Assembly (NCBI GenBank): GCA_034722055.1
Contig: JAYENL010000093.1
Location: 29,622 to 89,173, forward strand
Source: Armatimonadota bacterium
GTDB lineage: Bacteria > Armatimonadota > Zipacnadia > Zipacnadales > UBA5352
Length of the DNA: 59,552 nucleotides
Direction: 5' to 3'
Positions 19,292-32,190 of this stretch are shown here, piece after piece (the stretch's first letter is position 1; each line of letters starts with the position of its first letter). The position numbers were made by a program, and so were the translations under genes. The notes under the pieces were generated by a model. It had not been told where the DNA came from, searched no databases, and was given only the letters and a program-made list of their open reading frames with translations.

Positions 19292-20906
19292 TAGCGATCA
19301 GCGATCAGCTATCAGCGGTCAGCTACCAGCTATCAGCGGTCAGCTACCAGCAACGGCGGGGGCCTCGCTGCCCAGCCGTCTGGAGGGGCTGGTCCCCGTC
19401 CCAGCCCGCCGTTTCCCTGTCGTTGTCGGGCTGGAAGCCCGACCTACGCGATGAAGGGATGAGGTAAAGGGGCGGTTGTCATGGCGTCAGGGGGGACGGG
19501 GCGAGGGCGCGGTTGTCGTGTCAGGAGGGGCGGGCTTCCTTGCCCGCCCGCCGTTGTTGCCGCCGTTCGTCGTGCCGTTTGGAGGGGCGCGACTACGCTC
19601 GCGCCCGGCCGTGCTGGTAGCGGTCAGCTACCAGCTATCAGCGGTCAGCTATCAGCTATCAGCGGTCAGCTACCAGCTACCAGCGGTCAGCTAACAGCAA
19701 CGGCGGCGGCCTCGCTGCCCAGCCGTCTGGAGGGGCTGGTCTCCGTCCCAGCCCGCCGTTTCCCTGTCGTTGTCGGGCTGGAAGCCCGACCTACGCGATG
19801 AAGGGATGAGGTAAAGGGGCGGCTGTCGTGCCGTCAGGGGGGACGGGGCGAGGGCGCGGCTGTCGTGCCGTCCGGAGGGGCGGGCTTCCCTGCCCGCCCG
19901 CCGTTGTCGGTGTTGCCGTGCCGTTTGGAGGGGCGCGACTACGTTTGCGCGCGGCCCTGCTGGTAGCGGTCAGCTACCAGCTATCAGCGGTCAGCTATCA
20001 GCTATCAGCGGTCAGCTATCAGCTATCAGCGGTCAGCTACCAGCTACCAGCGGTCAGCTATCAGCTACCAGCGGTCAGCTATCAGCGGTCAGCTAACAGC
20101 AACGGCGGGGGCCTCGCTGCCCAGCCGTCTGGAGGGGCTGGTCCCCGTCCCAGCCCGCCGTTTCCCTGTCGTTGTCGGGCTGGAAGCCCGACCTACGCGA
20201 TGAAGGGATGAGGTAAAGGGGCGGTTGTCATGGCGTCAGGGGGGACGGGGCGAGGGCGCGGTTGTCGTGTCAGGAGGGGCGGGCTTCCTTGCCCGCCCGC
20301 CGTTGTTGCCGCCGTTCGTCGTGCCGTTTGGAGGGGCGCGACTACGCTCGCGCCCGGCCGTGCTGGTAGCGGTCAGCTACCAGCTATCAGCGGTCAGCTA
20401 TCAGCTATCAGCGGTCAGCTACCAGCTACCAGCGGTCAGCTAACAGCAACGGCGGCGGCCTCGCTGCCCAGCCGTCTGGAGGGGCTGGTCTCCGTCCCAG
20501 CCCGCCGTTTCCCTGTCGTTGTCGGGCTGGAAGCCCGACCTACGCGATGAAGGGATGAGGTAAAGGGGCGGCTGTCGTGCCGTCAGGGGGGACGGGGCGA
20601 GGGCGCGGCTGTCGTGCCGTCCGGAGGGGCGGGCTTCCCTGCCCGCCCGCCGTTGTCGGTGTTGCCGTGCCGTTTGGAGGGGCGCGACTACGTTTGCGCG
20701 CGGCCCTGCTGGTAGCGGTCAGCTACCAGCTATCAGCGGTCAGCTATCAGCTATCAGCGGTCAGCTATCAGCTATCAGCGGTCAGCTATCAGCTATCAGC
20801 GGTCAGCTACCAGCTACCAGCGGTCAGCTATCAGCGGTCAGCTAACAGCAACGGCGGGGGCCTCGCTGCCCAGCCGTCTGGAGGGGCTGGTCTCCGTCCC
20901 AGCCCG
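19291..20906 (+). repeat. Higher-order tandem array: alternating 347- and 402-bp units (749-bp dimer x2+) built from REP-like palindromes and CAGC(TAT/GGT/TAC) heptamer tracts
   Basis: Marker gacctacgcgatgaagggatgagg at 19441, 19788, 20190 and 20537 (spacings 347, 402, 347). Spurious ORFs are duplicated 749 bp apart (19476/20225, 19481/20230, 19828/20577). Confidence 0.95.
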
Positions 20907-20939
20907 ACCGTTGAGACGCCGAAGAGGAGTAGACTGCCC

Positions 20940-21737: not shown

Positions 21738-21766
21738 TTGACATCCCGGGGAGCGGTCGGTATACT
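21738..21766 (+). promoter_or_regulatory. Sigma70-type promoter for the yceD-rpmF-plsX-fab cluster
   Basis: TTGACA (21738-43), 17-bp spacer, TATACT (21761-66). Confidence 0.85.
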
Positions 21767-22661: not shown

Positions 22662-23666
22662 ATGCGGATAGCCGTGGACGCCATGGGGGGCGATTTCGCC
22701 CCCGACGAGATCGTCGCCGGCGCCCGTCTGGCGGCTGACATGCTCGGGGCGCAGATTGCCCTCGTGGGGCAGCCCGAGGCCGTTGAGGAGGCCCTTGCAG
22801 GGCTGCCCGCGAGTAATGAGCGGATTGAGGTGGAGCCGGCGGCCGACGTCATCGACATGGGGGAGAGCGCCCGCTCCGCCATCCGCGGCCGGGATGACAC
22901 GTCCGTGGCGGTTGCGGTGGAGATGGTGGCCGACGGCAGGGCCCAGGCGGTGGTCTCGGCGGGCAATTCGGGTGCGTTCATGGCGCTCTCCACAGTCCGG
23001 ATGGGGACGATCCCCGGGGTCAAGCGCCCCGCCATCGCCGTGACGCTGCCCAGCCCCGCCGGCACCCGGGTGCTCCTGGACGCCGGCGCCAACGCCGACT
23101 GCAAGCCCGGGCACCTCCGCGACTTCGGGCTGATGGGGTCGGTCTACGCCGAGCACGCGCTGGGCATCGGGAGTCCGCGGGTCGGCGTGCTCAGCATCGG
23201 CGAGGAGAGGGGCAAGGGCAACGAGCTGACCAAGGCCGCGCACGAGCTCCTGGCCGCCACGGATGTGAACTTCGTGGGCAATGTGGAGGGCGGCGACATC
23301 TACGGAGACGGCTGCGATGTCATCGTCTGCGACGGGTTTGTGGGGAACGTAGTTCTCAAGGCCAGCGAGGGCGTGGCCGGCGTCTTCGCGTTCGAGATGC
23401 GTGAGGCGATCCGCAGCAATCTGGCGCTGAGGCTGGTGGCGCCGATGTTCCGTACTGCCTTGCGGCGGATCATCAGGCAGTTTGACTACTCGGAGTATGG
23501 CGGTGCGCTGCTGCTGGGGGTCAACGGGGTGAGCGTCGTCAGCCACGGCTGCTCGGACGCCAACGCCATCCGTAACGCCATACGCTTTGCCTGCCGAGCC
23601 GTGGAGCGCCGGGTCGTGGAGCACATCTCGGCGGTCTTTGCCCAGCGCGCTGAGCTGCCGGCCTGA
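22662..23666 (+). CDS. plsX: Phosphate acyltransferase PlsX
   Basis: IAVDAMGGDFAP, SAGNSGA, LDAGAN, VCDGFVGNVVLK, GGALLLG...HG.S. Confidence 0.97.
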   Translation: MRIAVDAMGGDFAPDEIVAGARLAADMLGAQIALVGQPEAVEEALAGLPASNERIEVEPAADVIDMGESARSAIRGRDDTSVAVAVEMVADGRAQAVVSAGNSGAFMALSTVRMGTIPGVKRPAIAVTLPSPAGTRVLLDAGANADCKPGHLRDFGLMGSVYAEHALGIGSPRVGVLSIGEERGKGNELTKAAHELLAATDVNFVGNVEGGDIYGDGCDVIVCDGFVGNVVLKASEGVAGVFAFEMREAIRSNLALRLVAPMFRTALRRIIRQFDYSEYGGALLLGVNGVSVVSHGCSDANAIRNAIRFACRAVERRVVEHISAVFAQRAELPA

Positions 23667-23704
23667 AGGCGGCGCAGCGGCGGCGCGCTCCTGGTACGGA
23701 TCCT

Positions 23705-24003
23705 CTCGGAGGGGTGAGGGGCTGCCTGTGCGGGGTCGCTCGCAGCACGGGCGCCATAGGACGCAGAGGGCTGTCTGCCGCGCCGTATGGAGGGGGCGGA
23801 CCACTGTCCGGCCCGCCGTTGCCCGTCCGCGATGGGGGCATGCGAAGACGGCGGTCGGGCTGGAAGCCCGACCTACGCGGAAGGGGGAGGCGCTGTCCCG
23901 CTGGAAGCCCGACCTGCGCGGCGAACGCGACGCGTAGTCGCGGTGGGAGGGGTGGACCTGCGCGGGGGGGGCCGCCGGCTTGCAGCTTGCGGCTTGTAGC
24001 TTG
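23705..24003. repeat. REP-like mosaic plus heptamer tract between plsX and fabH
   Basis: ggtcgggctggaagcccgacctac (23853-76, same as in the 19-21 kb array), GGAGGGG-tagged units, and cggcttg cagcttg cggcttg tagcttg (23976-24003, reverse complement of the 17.1-kb heptamers). Confidence 0.75.
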
Positions 24004-24160
24004 TCGCTGCCGTTATCCGTCGTAACCTGGTGGCGGGCCTGAGCTGGTGGAGGAATTCCGCCTGGTTGCGGGAACGCCACCATGTTCGCGTGTGGAGAGC
24101 CGGATTGGTGTCGGCGCGGAGAGGGCGCCGGCAGTCGTGCGAGAGGGTGCACGCCTGCTC

Positions 24161-25162
24161 ATGTCGCTTCGGCCTGCAGTGATCACAGGTGTTGGGTCCT
24201 ACGTCCCCGAGCGCGTGCTCACGAACGCGGATCTCGAGGAGATCGTGGACACCAGCGACGAGTGGATCGTCAGTCACACGGGCATCAGGGAGCGCCGCAT
24301 CGCCTCCGACGAGCAGGCCACCTCTGATCTGGGAATCGAGGCCAGCCTCAGGGCCCTGGAGGACGCCGGTATCGGGCCGGAGGACCTGGGCCTGATCGTC
24401 TGCGCCACTGTCACCCCCGATCACCTCTTCCCCGCCACCGCCAACATCATCCAGGACCGTATCGGCGCGGAGAACGCCGCCGCCTTTGATCTGCTCAGCG
24501 GCTGCACCGGCTTCGTCTACGGCCTGTACGTGGCGCGCCAGTTCATCGCCACCGGGGAGAGTGACCCGGTGCTGGTGATCGCGGCGGAGAAGCTGACCTC
24601 CATCACCGACTGGACCGACCGCAGCACCTGCGTGCTTTTCGGCGACGGCGCGGGAGCGGCGGTGGTGGCTGCCGGTGACGGAGATCCCGACCGAGTGGGC
24701 CTCGTCGCCTTCGAGCTGGAGTCCTATGGCGAGCACGGGGGCCTGTTGATTGTGCCGGCGGGCGGCTCTCGCCAGCCCCTGGACGAGGAGCTGCTGGCCG
24801 CCCACGACGACTGCCTGCACATGAGCGGGCCGGAGCTGTTCAAGCTGGCGGTGCGCGGCATCCCGGAGGTGGCCGGCAAGACCATCGCCAGGGCCGGAAT
24901 CACCAACCGCGACATCGACTGGGTGGTCATGCACCAGGCCAACATGCGCATCATCGATGCCGCCGCCAGGCGTCTGGACATCCCGAACGAGCGCATGGTG
25001 GTCAATGTCGATAGGTACGGCAACACCTCCGGAGCCTCCATGGCCATCGCCCTGGATGAGGTCTACCGCGACGGCCGCCTGCAGCCCGGCGACAACGTGT
25101 TGATGGTGGGATTTGGGGCGGGGTTCAGCCTCGGCGGCGCCGTCATCCGCTGGACCGGCTAG
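24161..25162 (+). CDS. fabH: 3-oxoacyl-ACP synthase III
   Basis: DTSDEWI..TGIRERR, SGCTGF (Cys), LFGDGAGA, HQAN, YGNTSGAS, GFGAG. Confidence 0.95.
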   Translation: MSLRPAVITGVGSYVPERVLTNADLEEIVDTSDEWIVSHTGIRERRIASDEQATSDLGIEASLRALEDAGIGPEDLGLIVCATVTPDHLFPATANIIQDRIGAENAAAFDLLSGCTGFVYGLYVARQFIATGESDPVLVIAAEKLTSITDWTDRSTCVLFGDGAGAAVVAAGDGDPDRVGLVAFELESYGEHGGLLIVPAGGSRQPLDEELLAAHDDCLHMSGPELFKLAVRGIPEVAGKTIARAGITNRDIDWVVMHQANMRIIDAAARRLDIPNERMVVNVDRYGNTSGASMAIALDEVYRDGRLQPGDNVLMVGFGAGFSLGGAVIRWTG

Positions 25163-25198
25163 CCGCCAAGCTTCAGAAAGCGCAGGGAGGAGACCCTC

Positions 25199-26347
25199 TT
25201 GGACTTCAGCTTCACCGAAGATCAGCAGATGATCGTGGACGCCGTGCGCGAGCTCGGCGAGGAGGAGCTGGCGCCCCGGGCCTCCGAGATCGCCGAGCGG
25301 GGCGAGTTCCCCTGGGAGAACGTCGAGCTGCTGCGGGAGATGGATCTCTGCGGCGTGCCTGTCCCTGAGGACTACGGCGGGCTCGACATGGGCTTTCTGA
25401 CGTGGGGTGTGGTTGGTGAGCTGCTCAGCTACTACTGCTCCACAACCGGTGCCATCTTCGGCGCCCACATGCTGGCCCAGTACCCCATCATGCAGTTCGG
25501 CACCGAGGAGCAGAAGCAGAAGTACCTGGTGCCTTTGACCACCGGGGAGAGCATCGGCGCCTTCGGCCTCACCGAGCCCAACGCGGGCTCGGACGCCGGC
25601 GCCGTTGCCACCAGGGCCGATCTGAAGGGCGACAAGTATATCCTCAACGGCACCAAGGTGTTCATATCCAACGGCGGCGAGGCCGAAGTCTACGTCATCA
25701 TCGCCAACATCGACCCCTCCAAGGGCACCCGCGGCCAGACTGCCTTCATCGTCGAGAAGGGCATGCCCGGCTTCGAGTTCGGCAAGGACGAGAAGAAGAT
25801 GGGCTGGGACGCGCTGCCCAATCGGGAGCTGATCTTCCAGGATTGCGAGGTCCCGGTCGAGAACGTGCTCTACAGGACCGGGCGGGGCTTCCGGGTGGCC
25901 ATGGAGACGCTCGGAATCGGCCGCCTGGGCATGGCCGTGGGCGCCGTCGGCCTGGCCCAGGCCGCCTTTGACGCCGCCATCGTCTACGCCCAGCAGCGGG
26001 AGCAGTTCGGGCAGCGGATCTCGGAGTTTCAGGCCATCCAGTTCAAGCTCGCCGACATGGCCACCGGGATCGAGGCCTCGCGGCTGCTGTACCAGCGGGC
26101 GGCCTGGCTCAAGGACCAGGGGGAGAAGTACGAGAAGCTGGCGGCCATGGCCAAGGTCTACTCCTCCGAGATGGTCTCACGCGTCACCTCTGATGCCGTG
26201 CAGATCCATGGTGGCGTGGGCTACACCCGCGACTTCCCCGTGGAGCGCTACATGCGCGAGGCCAAGCTGTTCGAGATCGTGGAGGGCACCTCGGAGATCC
26301 AGCGCGGCATCATCGCCAACCGCGTCCTGCGCGAGCACCGCATCTGA
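25199..26347 (+). CDS. Acyl-CoA dehydrogenase (butyryl-CoA dehydrogenase-like)
   Basis: [62 protein letters not shown] start. Confidence 0.95.
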
Positions 26348-26376
26348 GCCGCGCTGCAATCGGAGCTGAGCGACCG

Positions 26377-27159
26377 ATGAACATCATCGTGTGCATCAAA
26401 CAGGTCCCTGACACCTCCGAGGTGCAGATCGACCCGGAGACGAACACCATCGTCCGGGAGGGCGTGCCGGCGATCATCAACCCCTTCGATGAGAACGCCA
26501 TCGAGGCGGCCGTCCAGCTTGTGGAGGAGCATGGCGGCACGGTCACCGTCATCTCCATGGGGCCGCCGCAGGCCGAGGACGCGCTGCGCGAGGCCCTCGC
26601 CATGGGCGCTGACGAGGCCATCCTGATCTCCGACCGCTGCTTCGCCGCCTCCGATACCCTCGCCACCTCCTACGTGCTCTCCTCCGCCATTCGGCAGATC
26701 GGGGACTACGATCTGATCCTGACCGGCAAGCAGGCCTTCGACGGCGACACCGCTCAGGTCCCGCCGGGCATCGCCGAGCACCTGGGCATCCCCCAGGTCA
26801 CCTTCGCCATCGGCCTGGAGGTGGACGGCAAGGCGCTGACGGTCCGCCGGCTGCTGGAGGACGAGTTCGAGGTCACGCAGGTCGAGATGCCGGCGGTGGT
26901 CTCGTGCGTCAAGCAGATGAACGAGCCCCGGCGCCCCGGCATTAAGGCCAAGCTGGCGGCGAAGAAGAAAAACGTGCAGGTGTGGGACCAGACCTGCATG
27001 GACGTGGACGCCTGCCTGTGCGGGCTGGATGGCTCGCCCACCCGCGTGGTCCGCACCTTCGCACCCACCCGCAACACCGAAGGCACGAGGTTCGAGGGCG
27101 AGCCGAAGGAGACCGCCACCGCGGTCATCGAGGCCCTCATCGACGACAAGATCATCTGA
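26377..27159 (+). CDS. etfB: Electron transfer flavoprotein beta subunit
   Basis: VCIKQVPDT, INPFDENAIE, GKQAFDGDTAQV, NEPR, GLDGSPTRV. Confidence 0.95.
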   Translation: MNIIVCIKQVPDTSEVQIDPETNTIVREGVPAIINPFDENAIEAAVQLVEEHGGTVTVISMGPPQAEDALREALAMGADEAILISDRCFAASDTLATSYVLSSAIRQIGDYDLILTGKQAFDGDTAQVPPGIAEHLGIPQVTFAIGLEVDGKALTVRRLLEDEFEVTQVEMPAVVSCVKQMNEPRRPGIKAKLAAKKKNVQVWDQTCMDVDACLCGLDGSPTRVVRTFAPTRNTEGTRFEGEPKETATAVIEALIDDKII

Positions 27160-27227
27160 CGCCCGCGCGAAGAGCCACTCCGCCCGCGGACCGCGCGGCC
27201 CGTTTGGACCCGTTCGGGAGCGACGCG

Positions 27228-28427
27228 ATGGGCATATACATCGACAAGCCCAAGTGCATCGGATGCGAGCTGTGCATCCCGGCCTGCCCCTACGGGGCCA
27301 TCGACATGGTCGATGAGAAGGCCGAGTTCAACGAGAACTGCACCATGTGCGGCGCCTGCGCCTACGCCTGCCCCACCGGCGCGATCGTGCTGGAGATGGC
27401 GGGCAAGGGCGAGGTGGACACCTCGCAGTACGAGGGCCTGTGGGTCGTCGGTGAGATTGGGCCCGAGGGCACGCTGGCCCCCGTCACCGCCGAGCTGATC
27501 GGCGAGGGCCGCAGGCTGGCAGCGGACCTCGGCACCGACGTCAGCGTTGTGCTCATGGGCCATGAGATCGCGGACCTGGCCGACGTGGCCGCCGGCTACG
27601 GCGCCGACCGCGTCTTCCTGGTGGACCATCCCACGCTCGGGCGCTACCGCACCCAGCCGTTCACGGACGTCCTGACGGGGCTGATCAACAAGCACAAGCC
27701 CGAGATCGTGCTCATCGGCGCCACCACCATGGGCCGCGACCTGGCCTCCCGCGTCGCGGCGCGCATCCGGGCCGGGCTGACTGCCGACTGCACGGAGCTG
27801 AGCATCCAGCCGGAGACCAGGCTCCTGGAGCAGACCCGACCGGCCTTCGGCGGCAACGTCATGGCCACCATCCTCTGCGAGTACACCCGCCCGCAGATGG
27901 CCACCGTGCGGCCCAAGGTCATGACGCCTATGGAGTTCGATGACAGCCGGGAGGCCGAGGTCATCCAGGTCCCGGTGGAGATCGACGAGGGGTCCATCGC
28001 CACCCGCATCCTGGAGGTCATCAAGGACGAGACCGGCAGCGACGTCAACCTCACCGAGGCCGACATCATCGTCTCCGGCGGACGCGGGCTGGGGGATCCG
28101 AAGCACTTCGCGCTTATCGAGGAGCTTGCGGAGCTGCTGGGCGGCGCCGTGGGCGCCTCCCGGGCCACCGTGGACGCCGGATGGATCCCTGCCACGCACC
28201 AGGTGGGGCAGACCGGCAAGACCGTGCATCCCAAGCTCTACATCGCCTGCGGCATCTCCGGCGCTGTGCAGCACCTGGCCGGCATGTCCTCCTCCGACTG
28301 CATCGTGGCCGTCAACAAGGACCCCGACGCGCCCATCTTCAACGTGGCGCACTACGGGATCGTGGGCGACCTGTTCGAGGTCGTGCCGGCCATGATCGAG
28401 GCCTTCAAGCAGCGGCGGGGTGAGTGA
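27228..28427 (+). CDS. etfA: Electron transfer flavoprotein alpha subunit with N-terminal 2x[4Fe-4S] ferredoxin domain
   Basis: [12 protein letters not shown] and [12 protein letters not shown], then [42 protein letters not shown]. Confidence 0.95.
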
Positions 28428-29357
28428 GTGGTGATCGCCTTCGTCTTCCCCGGGCAGAACTCGCACTACGTGGGGATGGGTGAGGACCTCTACGAGGCCG
28501 GCGGCCCCCCGAGGCTGGCTCTGGAGGTCGCGGAGGGCGCCCTGGGCGCCGACCTGCTGCAGGTGATGTTCGAGGGGCCGGAGGATGCGCTCACTCGCAC
28601 CGACAACCAGCAGCCCGCCATCGCAGCTCACTCCCTGGCGGCATTGGCGGGCCTGCGCGACGCCGGCATTGAGCCGGACTTCGTGGCCGGCCACAGCCTC
28701 GGGGAGTACTCGGCCGTCGCCTGCGCCGGGTGCCTCACGCCGGAGCAGGTCCTGCATCTGGTGCGCTTCCGGGGCGAGCTGATGGCCCGTGCGGGCGAGG
28801 AGTGCCCCGGCGCCATGGCGGCCGTCCTGGGCCTGGACGCCGAGGAGGTGGAGGCGGTGGTCGCCCGGGCGCGGGAGGACGACGTCCTGGTCGTCGCGAA
28901 CTACAACTCCCCGGGGCAGATCGTCATCTCGGGCGAGGTGGGCGCGGTGGAGCGGGCCGGTGCGCTGGCCGAGGAGGCTGGCGCGAAGCGCGTCATCCCC
29001 CTCAAGGTCAGTGGAGCCTTCCACTCCTCCCTGATGGGGCCGGCGGTCGACCTGCTCATCGAGCGTCTCGAGGAGATCGACCTTGCGCCGGCGGACGTGC
29101 CCGTCGTCGCCAACGCGGACGCCCTGCCGCACACCGAACCGGCCCAGGTCCGGGAGTGCCTGGGCAGGCAGATGACCACCAGCGTCCTATGGGAGCAGAG
29201 CGTGCGTCGGCTGGCCGAGGAGGGCGTGGAGACGCTGGTGGAGGTCGGTCCCGGCACGGTGCTGAGCAGGCTCATCCGCAGGATCGACCCGGAGCTGCAG
29301 GTCCTTAACGTGGACACCGCAGAGGACCTGCAGCAGGCCGTCGCCCGGCTCACATAG
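28428..29357 (+). CDS. fabD: Malonyl-CoA:ACP transacylase
   Basis: FPGQ, GHSLGEY, ANYNSPGQIVISG, VSGAFHS; starts directly after the etfA stop. Confidence 0.95.
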   Translation: MVIAFVFPGQNSHYVGMGEDLYEAGGPPRLALEVAEGALGADLLQVMFEGPEDALTRTDNQQPAIAAHSLAALAGLRDAGIEPDFVAGHSLGEYSAVACAGCLTPEQVLHLVRFRGELMARAGEECPGAMAAVLGLDAEEVEAVVARAREDDVLVVANYNSPGQIVISGEVGAVERAGALAEEAGAKRVIPLKVSGAFHSSLMGPAVDLLIERLEEIDLAPADVPVVANADALPHTEPAQVRECLGRQMTTSVLWEQSVRRLAEEGVETLVEVGPGTVLSRLIRRIDPELQVLNVDTAEDLQQAVARLT

Positions 29358-29501
29358 CGAGCGGTCGCTGGCGGAAATGGTTGGATCCTCACTACGAGGG
29401 CAGTCGAGGGGGTACATTGCTGCCAGGACGGGCACCATTGAGATGGAGGGGTCGCCGGTTCCACCCCGGCCCAGAGCCCCGTCCCGCCGGAGGTGTGGGT
29501 C

Positions 29502-30242
29502 TTGCAGCTTCAGGACCAGGTTGCCATAATCACGGGAGCGGGTGGCGGCATCGGCGCCGCCATCGCCCACACGCTGGCCGATGCCGGCGCACACATCGTC
29601 GTCAATGACGTCGCGGAGGCGGCGGCGGAGAAGGTCGCCGCCGAGGTCGGCGAGCGCGGCGTGGAGGCCATGGTGAGCGCCGCCGACATCACTGACGCGG
29701 AGCAGGTCCAGGACATGATGGACGAGGTGATGAAGCGCTTTCAGCGCATAGACATCCTCGTCAACAACGCCGGCATCACCCGCGACGCGCTGCTCGTGCG
29801 CATGGGCGAGGAGCAATGGGACGCCGTCCTGGACGTGAATCTCAAGGGAGCCTTCCTATGCACCAGAGCCGTGGCCAGGCCCATGATGCGGGCACGCTAC
29901 GGTCGGATCGTCAACATGGCGTCCGTCGCCGGGGTGGCCGGGAATGCCGGACAGGCCAACTACTCGGCCTCCAAGGGCGGTCTGATCTCGCTGACCAAGA
30001 CCACCGCCCAGGAGCTGGCGGGCCGCAACGTGACCTGCAACGCGCTGGCGCCGGGGTTCATCGAGACCGCCATGACCGATGAGCTGCCGGACGAGCAGCG
30101 CCAGGCGTGGCTGGATCGCATCCCGCTCAAGCGGCCCGGTACCGCCGGGGACGTGGCCAATGCAGTGCGGTTTCTGGCCGGCCCGGGCGCAGCCTACATC
30201 ACCGGCCAGGTGATCAACATCGACGGCGGCCTGATCATGTAG
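29502..30242 (+). CDS. fabG: 3-oxoacyl-ACP reductase
   Basis: TGAGGGIG, NNAGITRD, GQANYSASK, PGFIETAMT; TTG start after GGAGG. Confidence 0.95.
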   Translation: MQLQDQVAIITGAGGGIGAAIAHTLADAGAHIVVNDVAEAAAEKVAAEVGERGVEAMVSAADITDAEQVQDMMDEVMKRFQRIDILVNNAGITRDALLVRMGEEQWDAVLDVNLKGAFLCTRAVARPMMRARYGRIVNMASVAGVAGNAGQANYSASKGGLISLTKTTAQELAGRNVTCNALAPGFIETAMTDELPDEQRQAWLDRIPLKRPGTAGDVANAVRFLAGPGAAYITGQVINIDGGLIM

Positions 30243-30266
30243 GCGTCTGCATGGAGATGAGGGAAG

Positions 30267-30503
30267 ATGGCAGTTGCGGATCGCGTCAAGGCAATCGTTG
30301 CCGAGGAGTTTGAGGTGCCGGAGACGCAGGTCACCGACTCCGCAACCTTCGAGGGCGACCTGGAGGGGGACTCCCTGTTGATGATGGAGCTGCTGATGGC
30401 CCTGGAGGACGAGTTCGACATGGAGATTCCTGAGGAGGAGGCACAGGACATCCAGACCGTCGGTGACGCCGTTCGGTACATTGAGGAGAGGACGGGCCGG
30501 TAG
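30267..30503 (+). CDS. Acyl carrier protein, divergent paralog (DSLL motif)
   Basis: 78-aa acidic ACP fold: GDLEGDSLLMMELLMALEDEF...IQTVGDAV. Confidence 0.9.
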   Translation: MAVADRVKAIVAEEFEVPETQVTDSATFEGDLEGDSLLMMELLMALEDEFDMEIPEEEAQDIQTVGDAVRYIEERTGR

Positions 30504-30614
30504 GACCGGGCCGTGGACCCACGGCGGCCGGAGATCGCACATAATGACACACAGACACTGCCGGGCCTCGCTGGGCCGGCCGACGCTACGCACAGAACGG
30601 AGATGAGACGACAC

Positions 30615-30848
30615 ATGGCGCTGTTCGAGCAGGTCAAGGAAGTCATCGTGCGGGAGCTGTCCGTCCCCGAGAGCTGGGTGACCGAGTCCGCCACCTTCGA
30701 GGGCGACCTGAAGGCGGACTCGCTGGACGTCGTCGAGCTGGTCATGGCGCTGGAGGACGAGTTCGACGTTGACATCCCCGAGGAGGACGCCCAGAGCATC
30801 CAGACCGTGGGCGACGCCGTCCGCTACCTCGAGGAGAAGACCCAGTAG
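30615..30848 (+). CDS. acpP: Acyl carrier protein (canonical DSLD motif)
   Basis: [20 protein letters not shown]...IQTVGDAV. Confidence 0.93.
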
Positions 30849-30948
30849 CTGCGGATCTCGAGGGGGACCTTCAGCGCGACTGGCGGCCGCCCAGCTTCAT
30901 GGACGGCCGCAGGTCGATATCCGGCGCACGTTGCGAGGGCCTGAGCTG

Positions 30949-32190
30949 ATGAACCGTCGCGTGGTCATAACCGGTACCGGGACCGTGTCGGCCTCCGGCC
31001 GGGGGCTTGACCGCCTGTGGGACGCCTGCCTTGAGGGACGTACGGGCATCGACCGCATCCGGCGCTTCGATCCGTCTGAGTACAAGGCGCAGATCGCCGC
31101 CGAGGTGGACCTGGACTTCGACGCCACGGACCGGATCGACCCCAAGCTGATGAAGCGCGCCGACCGCTTCGCCAGGTACGGGGTGTGGGCGGCCGACGTG
31201 GCGATGGAGCACGCGGGGCTGGCGATCGATGATGGCAACCGGAGCGAGATCGGCGTGCTCATCGGCTCCGGCATCGGGGGCATGACCACCTGGGAGGAGC
31301 AGTTCGAGCGACTCCTCGAACGCGGCCCCAACCGGGTCTCGCCCTTCCTGGTGCCCATGATGATCATCGACATGGCCTCCGGTCTGATGTCCATCCACTG
31401 CGGGGCCATGGGGCCCAACTCAGCGGTGGTCACCGCCTGCGCCTCCGGGGCGCACGCCATCGCCGCCTGCGTGGACCTCATCAAGCTCGGGCGCGCCAAG
31501 GCCATGATCACCGGGGGGACCGAGGCCGGCGTGTGTCGCAGCGCCCTGGCCGGCTTCTGCGCCGCCCAGGCTCTCTCCACTCGCAATGACGATCCGGCCG
31601 CCGCCTGTCGCCCCTTCGACCGTGACCGCGATGGATTCGTTATCGGCGAGGGCGCCACCGGTGTGATTGTCGAGGACCTGCAGTACGCCCGGCAGAGGGG
31701 CGCGCCCATCCTCGCCGAGATCGTGGGCGTGGGCCTCAGCGGCGACGCCCATCACATTACCGAGCCCTGCCCCGACGGGGCCGGGGCCATCCTGGCCATG
31801 CAGAACGCCCTCGACGATGCCGCCATGACGGTCGAGGATATCGACTACATCAATGCACACGGGCCGGGCACTCCGGCCGGCGACGCCACCGAGGCCCTGG
31901 CCCTTCGCGAGCTGCTTGGCGAGCATCTCTCCGAGGTGCCCATCTCCTCCACCAAGCCGGTGCACGGGCACATGCTCGGGGCCACCGGCCCCACCGAGCT
32001 GGCGCTGTGCATCAAGTCCATCCACGAGGGCATCATCCCGCACACCCTCAACTGCGACGACCCCGAGCCCCAGGACCTGGACCTTGTCCGGGGCCAGCCG
32101 CGCGAGGCCGAGGTCAACATCGTCATGTCCAACTCCTTCGGCTTCGGCGGGCATAATGTCACACTCATCATTCGCCGCTTTGAGGAGTGA
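30949..32190 (+). CDS. fabF: 3-oxoacyl-ACP synthase II
   Basis: RRVVITG, GSGIGG, TACASG, RPFDRDRDGFVIGEG, INAHG, GHMLGA, SNSFGFGGHN. Confidence 0.95.
   Translation: MNRRVVITGTGTVSASGRGLDRLWDACLEGRTGIDRIRRFDPSEYKAQIAAEVDLDFDATDRIDPKLMKRADRFARYGVWAADVAMEHAGLAIDDGNRSEIGVLIGSGIGGMTTWEEQFERLLERGPNRVSPFLVPMMIIDMASGLMSIHCGAMGPNSAVVTACASGAHAIAACVDLIKLGRAKAMITGGTEAGVCRSALAGFCAAQALSTRNDDPAAACRPFDRDRDGFVIGEGATGVIVEDLQYARQRGAPILAEIVGVGLSGDAHHITEPCPDGAGAILAMQNALDDAAMTVEDIDYINAHGPGTPAGDATEALALRELLGEHLSEVPISSTKPVHGHMLGATGPTELALCIKSIHEGIIPHTLNCDDPEPQDLDLVRGQPREAEVNIVMSNSFGFGGHNVTLIIRRFEE

Follow-up and report, generated by a model that had tools for sequence, protein, structure and literature searches.

A candidate enoyl-ACP reductase pairing an acyl-CoA dehydrogenase with an electron transfer flavoprotein in the fatty acid synthesis cluster of Armatimonadota

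Results

The DNA analyzed here, referred to as the window, is a 59,552-nucleotide stretch of contig JAYENL010000093.1 from an Armatimonadota bacterium. Its plus strand carries, at 22662-32190, a type II fatty acid synthesis (FAS-II) cluster in the order plsX-fabH-ACAD-etfB-Fd::etfA-fabD-fabG-acp1-acp2-fabF, with yceD and rpmF before plsX and rnc after fabF. Our subject is the trio between fabH and fabD, which encodes an acyl-CoA dehydrogenase (ACAD)-fold flavoenzyme, EtfB, and an EtfA fused to a ferredoxin (Fd) domain, and which is a candidate enoyl-acyl carrier protein (ACP) reductase (ENR). The initial annotation had placed these genes there, and our analysis agreed down to the spacing, since 36 bp separate fabH from the ACAD gene and fabD starts at the very next base after the etfA stop. 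The ACAD gene has a TTG start preceded by AGGAGG. As had also been claimed, the cluster lacks fabI, fabK, fabL, fabV, and fabZ, none of whose products was found among the 16 proteins scanned in and around it.

The predicted model of the window ACAD (pLDDT 90) superposes with TM scores of 0.94 to 0.95 on the butyryl-CoA dehydrogenases (Bcd) of Acidaminococcus fermentans (4L1F) and Clostridioides difficile (5OL2), which are also its closest PDB chains (50 to 52% identity). The E value is 2e-121 against Bcd and 8e-89 against CarC, the latter at rank 20 among PDB sequences, and the protein exceeded no NCBIfam cut-off. Phylogenetic trees, each a quick search over part of the rows (101 of 134, with 33 Bacteroidota-rich rows dropped; 67 of 264; and 32 of 264), gave two well-supported ACAD clades, of which clade A is the window type. 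The catalytic Glu362 of the J-K loop is present in all 54 clade-A sequences. Among the Etf-interface residues, F155, E198, T343, and D345 are kept in the window ACAD, while Y340 is Val and Y346 is Phe; in window EtfA, Arg204 and Arg312 align with R136 and R243 of C. difficile EtfA. The available text on the C. difficile complex names Bcd F155, E198, and D345 and EtfA R136 and R243 as contacts (PMC5691135).

The substrate pocket differs from that of Bcd. The Tyr361/Gln248 pair, described for straight-chain enzymes in the available part of PMC12630350, is replaced by Val361 (54/54 clade-A sequences) and Gly248 (48/48). Helix E, which according to the portion of PMC11153573 at hand shapes the ACAD substrate cavity, is also altered. 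It has 17 residues in all 54 clade-A and all 134 clade-B sequences and 18 in 74 of the 76 outgroup sequences. On the strength of structure comparisons of MCAD, SCAD, and VLCAD, the changes point to a pocket roomier than that of Bcd, in which longer chains would be allowed. A clean ACP signature was sought in the ACAD without success: the loss of Asp239 is absent from clade B and occurs in the outgroup, and the basic positions enriched in both clades (209, 226, 313, and 328) are ambiguous, position 226 being Lys in the Bcds 4L1F and 5OL2 as well.

EtfB matched the bifurcating or confurcating chains 5OL2_B, 6FAH_B, 4KPU_B, 7QH2_B, and 7KOE_A with E values of 2e-71 to 2e-64, against 2e-27 (human ETF) or weaker for canonical Etfs. 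Gly123, which leaves space for a second FAD and serves as a bifurcation marker in the available text of PMC12630350, is present in the window EtfB, in 50/50 clade-A loci, and in 71/73 clade-B loci. EtfA carries two CxxCxxCxxxC motifs, and its best match, CarE (6FAH_A), covers the full length at 5e-129. Judged by these residues and motifs, the Etf carries the marks of bifurcating Etfs. Several variants of the trio were seen. The Etf of family f2 (L034, L038) is divergent, with 41 to 47% identity and no ferredoxin domain detected ahead of etfA, and inserts of 0.7 to 1.3 kb lie among ACAD, etfB, and etfA in several lineages (L019, L027, L036, L038, L128, L229, L232, L247), one of which (L128:6100-7077) has no Pfam match.

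The arrangement is conserved in the order to which the source organism belongs. The ACAD was matched in 58 of 61 genomes, and loci were sampled from 40 of the 57 carriers other than the source. fabH lies directly before the ACAD gene in 39 of these 40 loci; the full fabH-ACAD-etfB-etfA-fabD order is found in 34, and 5 more are interrupted by contig ends. The remaining locus (L042) is different and holds a clade-B ACAD at the start of a contig. Because a control genome scan found fab neighbors at 0 of 72 more distant ACAD loci, the arrangement is not due to chance, and the order conserved among the relatives rules out an assembly artefact or a one-off insertion, so that the question of synteny raised by the initial annotation is settled in its favor. 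In family f25 of the same phylum, an NMO-family gene occupies the position between fabH and fabD in 4/4 loci, and the one slot protein scanned is a true FabK, over the TIGR03151 cut-off and matching PDB 7L00 at 7e-124.

The source genome (6.14 Mb, 68% GC) is 92.7% complete, and absences from it therefore mean only "not found." Within that limit, no FabI, FabK, FabL, or FabV was detected elsewhere in it, in line with the proposal of the initial annotation. The best tblastn E value with Escherichia coli FabI was 1e-9. For FabK, two NMO-family queries matched nothing and PF03060 gave one sub-threshold match, which from reading the sequence by eye we take to resemble PdxS. The FabV profile found nothing, in a search whose control was also silent in 14/14 genomes, although the profile itself matched strongly in 2/261, and the FabV sequence query carried the tail of an upstream gene, which alone matched. 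None of 12 short-chain dehydrogenase/reductase (SDR) proteins reached the 328-bit FabL cut-off, their best scores being to FabG-like or sugar/alcohol dehydrogenase models. This panel comprised FabI, FabK, FabL, and FabV; FabL2, FabI2, FabMG, and MDR-type reductases got no dedicated search. The ACAD, etfB, etfA, fabH, fabD, and fabZ genes are each single-copy, fabZ adjoining lpxA on another contig (C196).

Gene content indicates that the source organism is anaerobic and ferredoxin using. No match to cyoB or cydA was found in its genome, which encodes PFOR, a NuoF-like protein, four GltD/Nfn-like proteins, and two group-4 hydrogenase-like clusters (L328 on C4 and L329 on C243), the large subunit on C4 carrying both Ni-binding motifs. 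Crotonase and MaoC were not found either. Thiolase, Hbd, and PhaB-like reductase genes stand together on contig C69 (L282:195-3034), where thiolase and Hbd are not linked to the ACAD locus; with no crotonase found in the genome, this cluster possibly serves a 3-hydroxybutyryl-CoA-epimerizing or polyhydroxyalkanoate-precursor route.

Across the phylum, the module (an ACAD match with E ≤ 1e-85 plus an EtfA match with E ≤ 1e-80) and FabI, scored on at most 10 candidates per genome, nearly exclude each other. Among 261 genomes, 4 have both, 70 the module only, 164 FabI only, and 23 neither, giving 74 module carriers and 168 FabI carriers. PF03060 and strong FabV matches are also lacking in 54 of the 70 module-only genomes, and 34 of 38 clade-A genomes lack both FabI and PF03060. 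Crotonase was found in none of six module genomes (the source and five more, two of those being single-contig assemblies) versus 13 of 14 in the control. The 23 genomes with neither system divide into five of family f25, two with FabV, one with another PF03060 protein, four with a partial module, and eleven in which nothing was found (G103, G128, G140, G181, G182, G197, G207, G220, G238, G269, G286). These eleven, and the 25 Omnitrophota genomes with neither the module nor FabI, may hold a further, unrecognized enoyl reductase or have no FAS-II.

Some FabI and FabK-like genes occur apart from fab genes. The FabIs of two module genomes (G022 and G027) stand ahead of MoxR/VWA genes outside the fab cluster, and in family f6 (L286:5948-6862, L287:6488-7240) fabI lies directly before MoxR-DUF58-VWA genes and away from the fab operon, in genomes that also have the ACAD module. 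The 16 PF03060-type loci outside f25 have no fab neighbors, and 12 of them are similar to a protein of G022 that finds its best PDB match (E 8e-70) in 7E1Q, identified in the available text of PMC8626469 as Helicobacter pylori FabX. Such stand-alone FabX-like flavoproteins occur in anaerobic Armatimonadota and Omnitrophota (L281:3001-4065; L302-L308, L311-L315), and in anaerobes oxygen is unlikely to be their electron acceptor.

Clade B, 49% identical to the window ACAD, takes in the ACADs sampled from further Armatimonadota that lack FabI, from Omnitrophota, and from one Thermodesulfobacteriota class (that of G295); labels of its close homologues name Syntrophorhabdaceae and point to Syntrophorhabdus relatives as carriers. 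An approximately unbiased (AU) test on 32 rows did not reject monophyly of A and B (p 0.137), the non-fab loci L171 and L179 group beside clade B, and the two clades may have been recruited separately to the enoyl-ACP reductase role. Of the Omnitrophota genomes (91 in all), clade B occurs in 40 and FabI in 26, with no overlap, leaving 25 without either. With FabI in only 4 of 74 module genomes in the phylum and in 0 of 40 Omnitrophota carriers, the anti-correlation that the initial annotation had suggested testing is present. Sub-cut-off TIGR03151 matches occur in 10 Omnitrophota genomes, 9 of them among the 40 carriers. fab genes are present in 26/34 clade-B Omnitrophota loci, in several orders, and in 31/80 clade-B metagenome loci (20/43 of those of at least 5 kb), with various gene orders that include the window's own. 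In the Thermodesulfobacteriota class, the ACAD occurs in 50 of 52 genomes and FabI in none, and all 18 loci (L262-L279) show plsX-ACAD followed by fabD or fabG, with fabH absent from the cluster. Two of these 18 clusters also lack fabD.

The remaining features of the cluster are listed in Table 1. The region holds two promoter-like sites, where shuffled sequence gave 0.8 on average, and two terminator-like matches, one of them inside fabH, where 2.7 would be expected by chance. acp2 is 68 to 97% identical across 30 relatives; acp1 is divergent, being 66% identical to acp2 with the serine motif kept, and only 3 of 40 relatives have two ACPs. Upstream, between two genes (19293-20915), lie about four units of 347/402 bp with 7-nucleotide tandem repeats, of which a 749-bp double unit repeats nearly exactly; the array may represent a mobile intergenic repeat, or else a duplication introduced by assembly. 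Two degenerate copies of its 35-nucleotide element occur at 23850-23925, inside the 494-bp plsX-fabH spacer, which is shorter in most relatives.

Table 1. Features of the fatty acid synthesis cluster (window coordinates)
Feature	Position	Strand	Basis
Sigma-70-like promoter candidate before yceD, probable operon start	21738..21766	+	11/12 consensus matches; consensus match only
plsX	22662..23666	+	TIGR00182, 356 bits, above cut-off
fabH	24161..25162	+	TIGR00747, 388 bits, above cut-off
ACAD-fold flavoenzyme (clade A), candidate enoyl-ACP reductase subunit	25199..26347	+	Pfam ACAD N/M/C
EtfB, bifurcating type by sequence	26377..27159	+	PDB matches; Gly123 present
EtfA with N-terminal 2x[4Fe-4S] ferredoxin domain (CarE architecture)	27228..28427	+	Pfam Fer4 + ETF + ETF_alpha
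fabD	28428..29357	+	TIGR00128, 310 bits, above cut-off
fabG	29493..30242	+	TIGR01830, 332 bits, above cut-off
acp1, extra acyl carrier protein	30267..30503	+	TIGR00517, above cut-off
acp2, conserved acyl carrier protein, presumed substrate carrier	30615..30848	+	TIGR00517, above cut-off
fabF	30949..32190	+	TIGR03150, 548 bits, above cut-off

Discussion

The module is real, conserved, and wrongly labeled, and it makes a strong candidate for an enoyl-ACP reductase of a new class. Because it occupies the slot that fabK fills elsewhere, because FabI is almost always missing from its carriers, because it stands in fab clusters of three phyla, and because no crotonase was found in the carriers tested, we think it likely that ACAD-EtfB-EtfA serves FAS-II in this lineage as its enoyl-ACP reductase, in place of FabI or FabK. 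Each round of chain elongation would then probably be completed by the trio, by a route that has not been described and that may save energy. In view of the type of Etf and of the -10 mV potential given for the crotonyl/butyryl couple in the available text of PMC5691135, we lean, by a modest degree, toward an enoyl-ACP reductase that also truly bifurcates electrons. We give about the same slight preference to the wider proposal that in anaerobes of at least three phyla the FAS-II cycle is ended by a bifurcating ACAD-EtfAB, so that lipid synthesis would yield reduced ferredoxin.

By analogy with Bcd-EtfAB and CarCDE, the three proteins would form a complex working in the reductive direction. 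NADH would reduce the flavin of EtfB; of the two electrons, one would move via the flavin of EtfA to that of the ACAD, while its partner would leave by way of the fused 2x[4Fe-4S] domain and reach ferredoxin. Once this has happened twice, the ACAD flavin, now reduced, would deliver a hydride to the C3 position in trans-2-enoyl-ACP supplied by FabZ, with Glu362 protonating C2. Each double bond would yield two one-electron equivalents of reduced ferredoxin, as with Bcd-EtfAB, and the outlet for these could be the group-4 [NiFe]-hydrogenase or the Nfn-like enzymes of the genome.

A number of observations weigh against such an assignment. The basic ACP-docking patch that had been predicted on the ACAD is not clearly seen, clade A being more acidic than the outgroup (mean net charge -16 versus -5). 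Of the enoyl-ACP reductase proposal in the initial annotation the genomic side stood, with no canonical ENR found, an insertion shared by relatives, and FabK filling the same slot, while the docking patch is unclear. fab neighbors occur at 0/11 clade-A loci outside the order and at 0/9 clade-B Armatimonadota loci, and none of the 18 loci of the Thermodesulfobacteriota class has etf beside the ACAD. FabI is retained in four module genomes (G022, G027, G061, G136), and a PF03060 protein occurs in 16 of the 70 that have the module but not FabI. Sub-cut-off TIGR03151 matches occur in 50/52 genomes of the Thermodesulfobacteriota class, and some could be ENRs; the one protein of this type that was checked is nearer PA1024 than FabK. 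Since genomes with neither system exist, the panel misses ENR types or the assemblies miss genes, and the statement that no known ENR is present is weaker than it appears. An aerobe/anaerobe split could lie behind part of the FabI exclusion, and Fisher tests on co-occurrence were set aside because related genomes are not independent. In the source genome, thiolase, Hbd, and the PhaB-like reductase are found together, and Rnf and [FeFe]-hydrogenase were not found. In addition, the available text of 10.1101/2024.07.05.601840 reports that a Sulfolobus ACAD/ETF pair failed to run reductively.

Three other explanations have to be weighed. The trio might provide FabH with primers made from short-chain or branched CoA esters, such as butyryl-CoA from crotonyl-CoA, while an unrecognized enzyme performs the ACP step. 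That the ACAD gene directly follows fabH, that the nearest solved enzymes are butyryl-CoA dehydrogenases, and that the C69 genes are present all fit this idea, and, by analogy with branched-chain ACADs, the exchange of Tyr361 for Val could make room for branched chains; the genomes without any detected ENR leave room for it as well. It is nevertheless unlikely, because crotonase was found in none of the six module genomes and MaoC was not found in the source genome, because the 18 clusters of the Thermodesulfobacteriota class hold the ACAD without fabH (a statement about the clusters only, as the rest of these genomes was not searched for fabH), and because it leaves the FabI exclusion and the fabK slot unexplained. 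We give still less credit to an energy or redox enzyme of broad role in anaerobes, acting on some CoA ester, that came to lie in the highly expressed rpmF-fab operon; under this view, an anaerobic lifestyle would be all that the FabI exclusion reflects. Chance would have had to place it in fab clusters again and again, in several gene orders and three phyla, against 0/72 for other ACADs; the enzyme is kept in assemblies of 0.9 to 1.5 Mb without crotonase, and the ENR would still be missing in most carriers, even if the trio does stand alone in many genomes (no fab genes at any of 20 Armatimonadota loci outside the order or at 8 of 34 Omnitrophota loci).

Least probable, and only barely credible to us, is O2-independent desaturation or chain editing, in which the complex would oxidize acyl-ACP to its trans-2-enoyl form, by confurcation involving NAD+ and reduced ferredoxin, for later isomerization as with FabX. 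The step would be wasteful, as trans-2-enoyl-ACP is already an intermediate of the cycle, some module genomes (e.g., G022) have separate FabX-like proteins, and the ENR hole would stay unfilled; oxidative ACAD-fold enzymes working on carrier-bound substrates do exist, among them prolyl-ACP dehydrogenase (4IRN), and also RedW, PigA, and MbtN, the models of which all scored the window ACAD below cut-off (260 < 650, 255 < 500, and 70 < 700 bits).

If the enoyl-ACP reductase assignment is correct, ACAD with Etf would be a third fold for bacterial enoyl-ACP reductases beside the SDR and the TIM barrel, and a hole in a core pathway would be filled for many uncultured anaerobes. It would also extend flavin-based electron bifurcation from energy metabolism to anabolism, with partial recovery of the drop of about 300 mV from NADH to the enoyl thioester (crotonyl-CoA potentials from the available text of PMC5691135), and may be of use in redox-efficient anaerobic fatty acid engineering. 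The current label of the gene, butyryl-CoA or acyl-CoA dehydrogenase, can suggest butyrate production or beta-oxidation where crotonase was not found.

Comparison with known systems

Our literature search, which most subscription papers and supplements lay beyond, found no publication proposing an ACAD/Etf enoyl-ACP reductase. The available text of a 2022 review of ENRs covers FabI, FabV, FabL, FabK, FabL2, FabI2, and FabMG and is silent on acyl-CoA dehydrogenases and flavoproteins (PMC9260719), and that of a 2026 review names no enzyme but FabI for the enoyl-ACP step (PMC13691511).

With Bcd-EtfAB (A. fermentans 4L1F/4KPU; C. difficile 5OL2) the window trio shares the ACAD fold, the catalytic Glu, Etf-interface residues, EtfB Gly123, and the EtfA arginines. 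Unlike Bcd-EtfAB, it sits in a fab operon and outside the thiolase-Hbd-crotonase pathway (crotonase found in 0/6 module genomes), its EtfA is ferredoxin fused, and its proposed substrate is ACP bound; Bcd also has one residue more in helix E, and a Tyr361/Gln248 pair where the window ACAD has Val/Gly. Neither the pocket nor the pathway context of the window enzyme is thus that of Bcd proper. CarCDE, the caffeyl-CoA reductase-Etf complex of Acetobacterium woodii (6FAH), has the same three-gene order and likewise bears a 2x[4Fe-4S] domain at the N terminus of its EtfA, but the window ACAD is nearer to Bcd and its neighbors are fab genes rather than CoA-activation genes. Membership in CarCDE was rejected on these grounds, as the dehydrogenase is not CarC-type and does not lie in a caffeate-activation operon. 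The acryloyl-CoA reductase AcrABC was likewise discarded, since all three proteins fell below the cut-offs of NF042972, NF042971, and NF042970 (439 < 640, 252 < 475, and 391 < 600 bits).

RedW, PigA, MbtN, and 4IRN illustrate that the ACAD fold accepts carrier-bound acyl groups, although these enzymes are oxidative and belong to secondary metabolism, and the window ACAD lies far below the cut-offs of the first three. A precedent for the chemistry is the anaerobic mitochondrial fatty acid synthesis of Euglena gracilis, in which, according to the available text of PMC6587861, ACAD and ETF reduce trans-2-enoyl thioesters; unlike our proposal, that route is a CoA-bound reverse beta-oxidation that is driven with complex I and rhodoquinone in a eukaryote and is not FAS-II. 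FabK, an FMN-containing TIM barrel, and the SDR reductases catalyze the reaction that is proposed for the trio, and in family f25 FabK occupies the identical slot between fabH and fabD. The window trio differs from FabK and from the SDR reductases (FabI, FabL, FabV, FabL2, FabI2, and FabMG) in its unrelated ACAD/Etf folds, its cofactors, and its three subunits, and whereas those enzymes take a hydride directly from NAD(P)H, the proposed trio would pass electrons singly via Etf.

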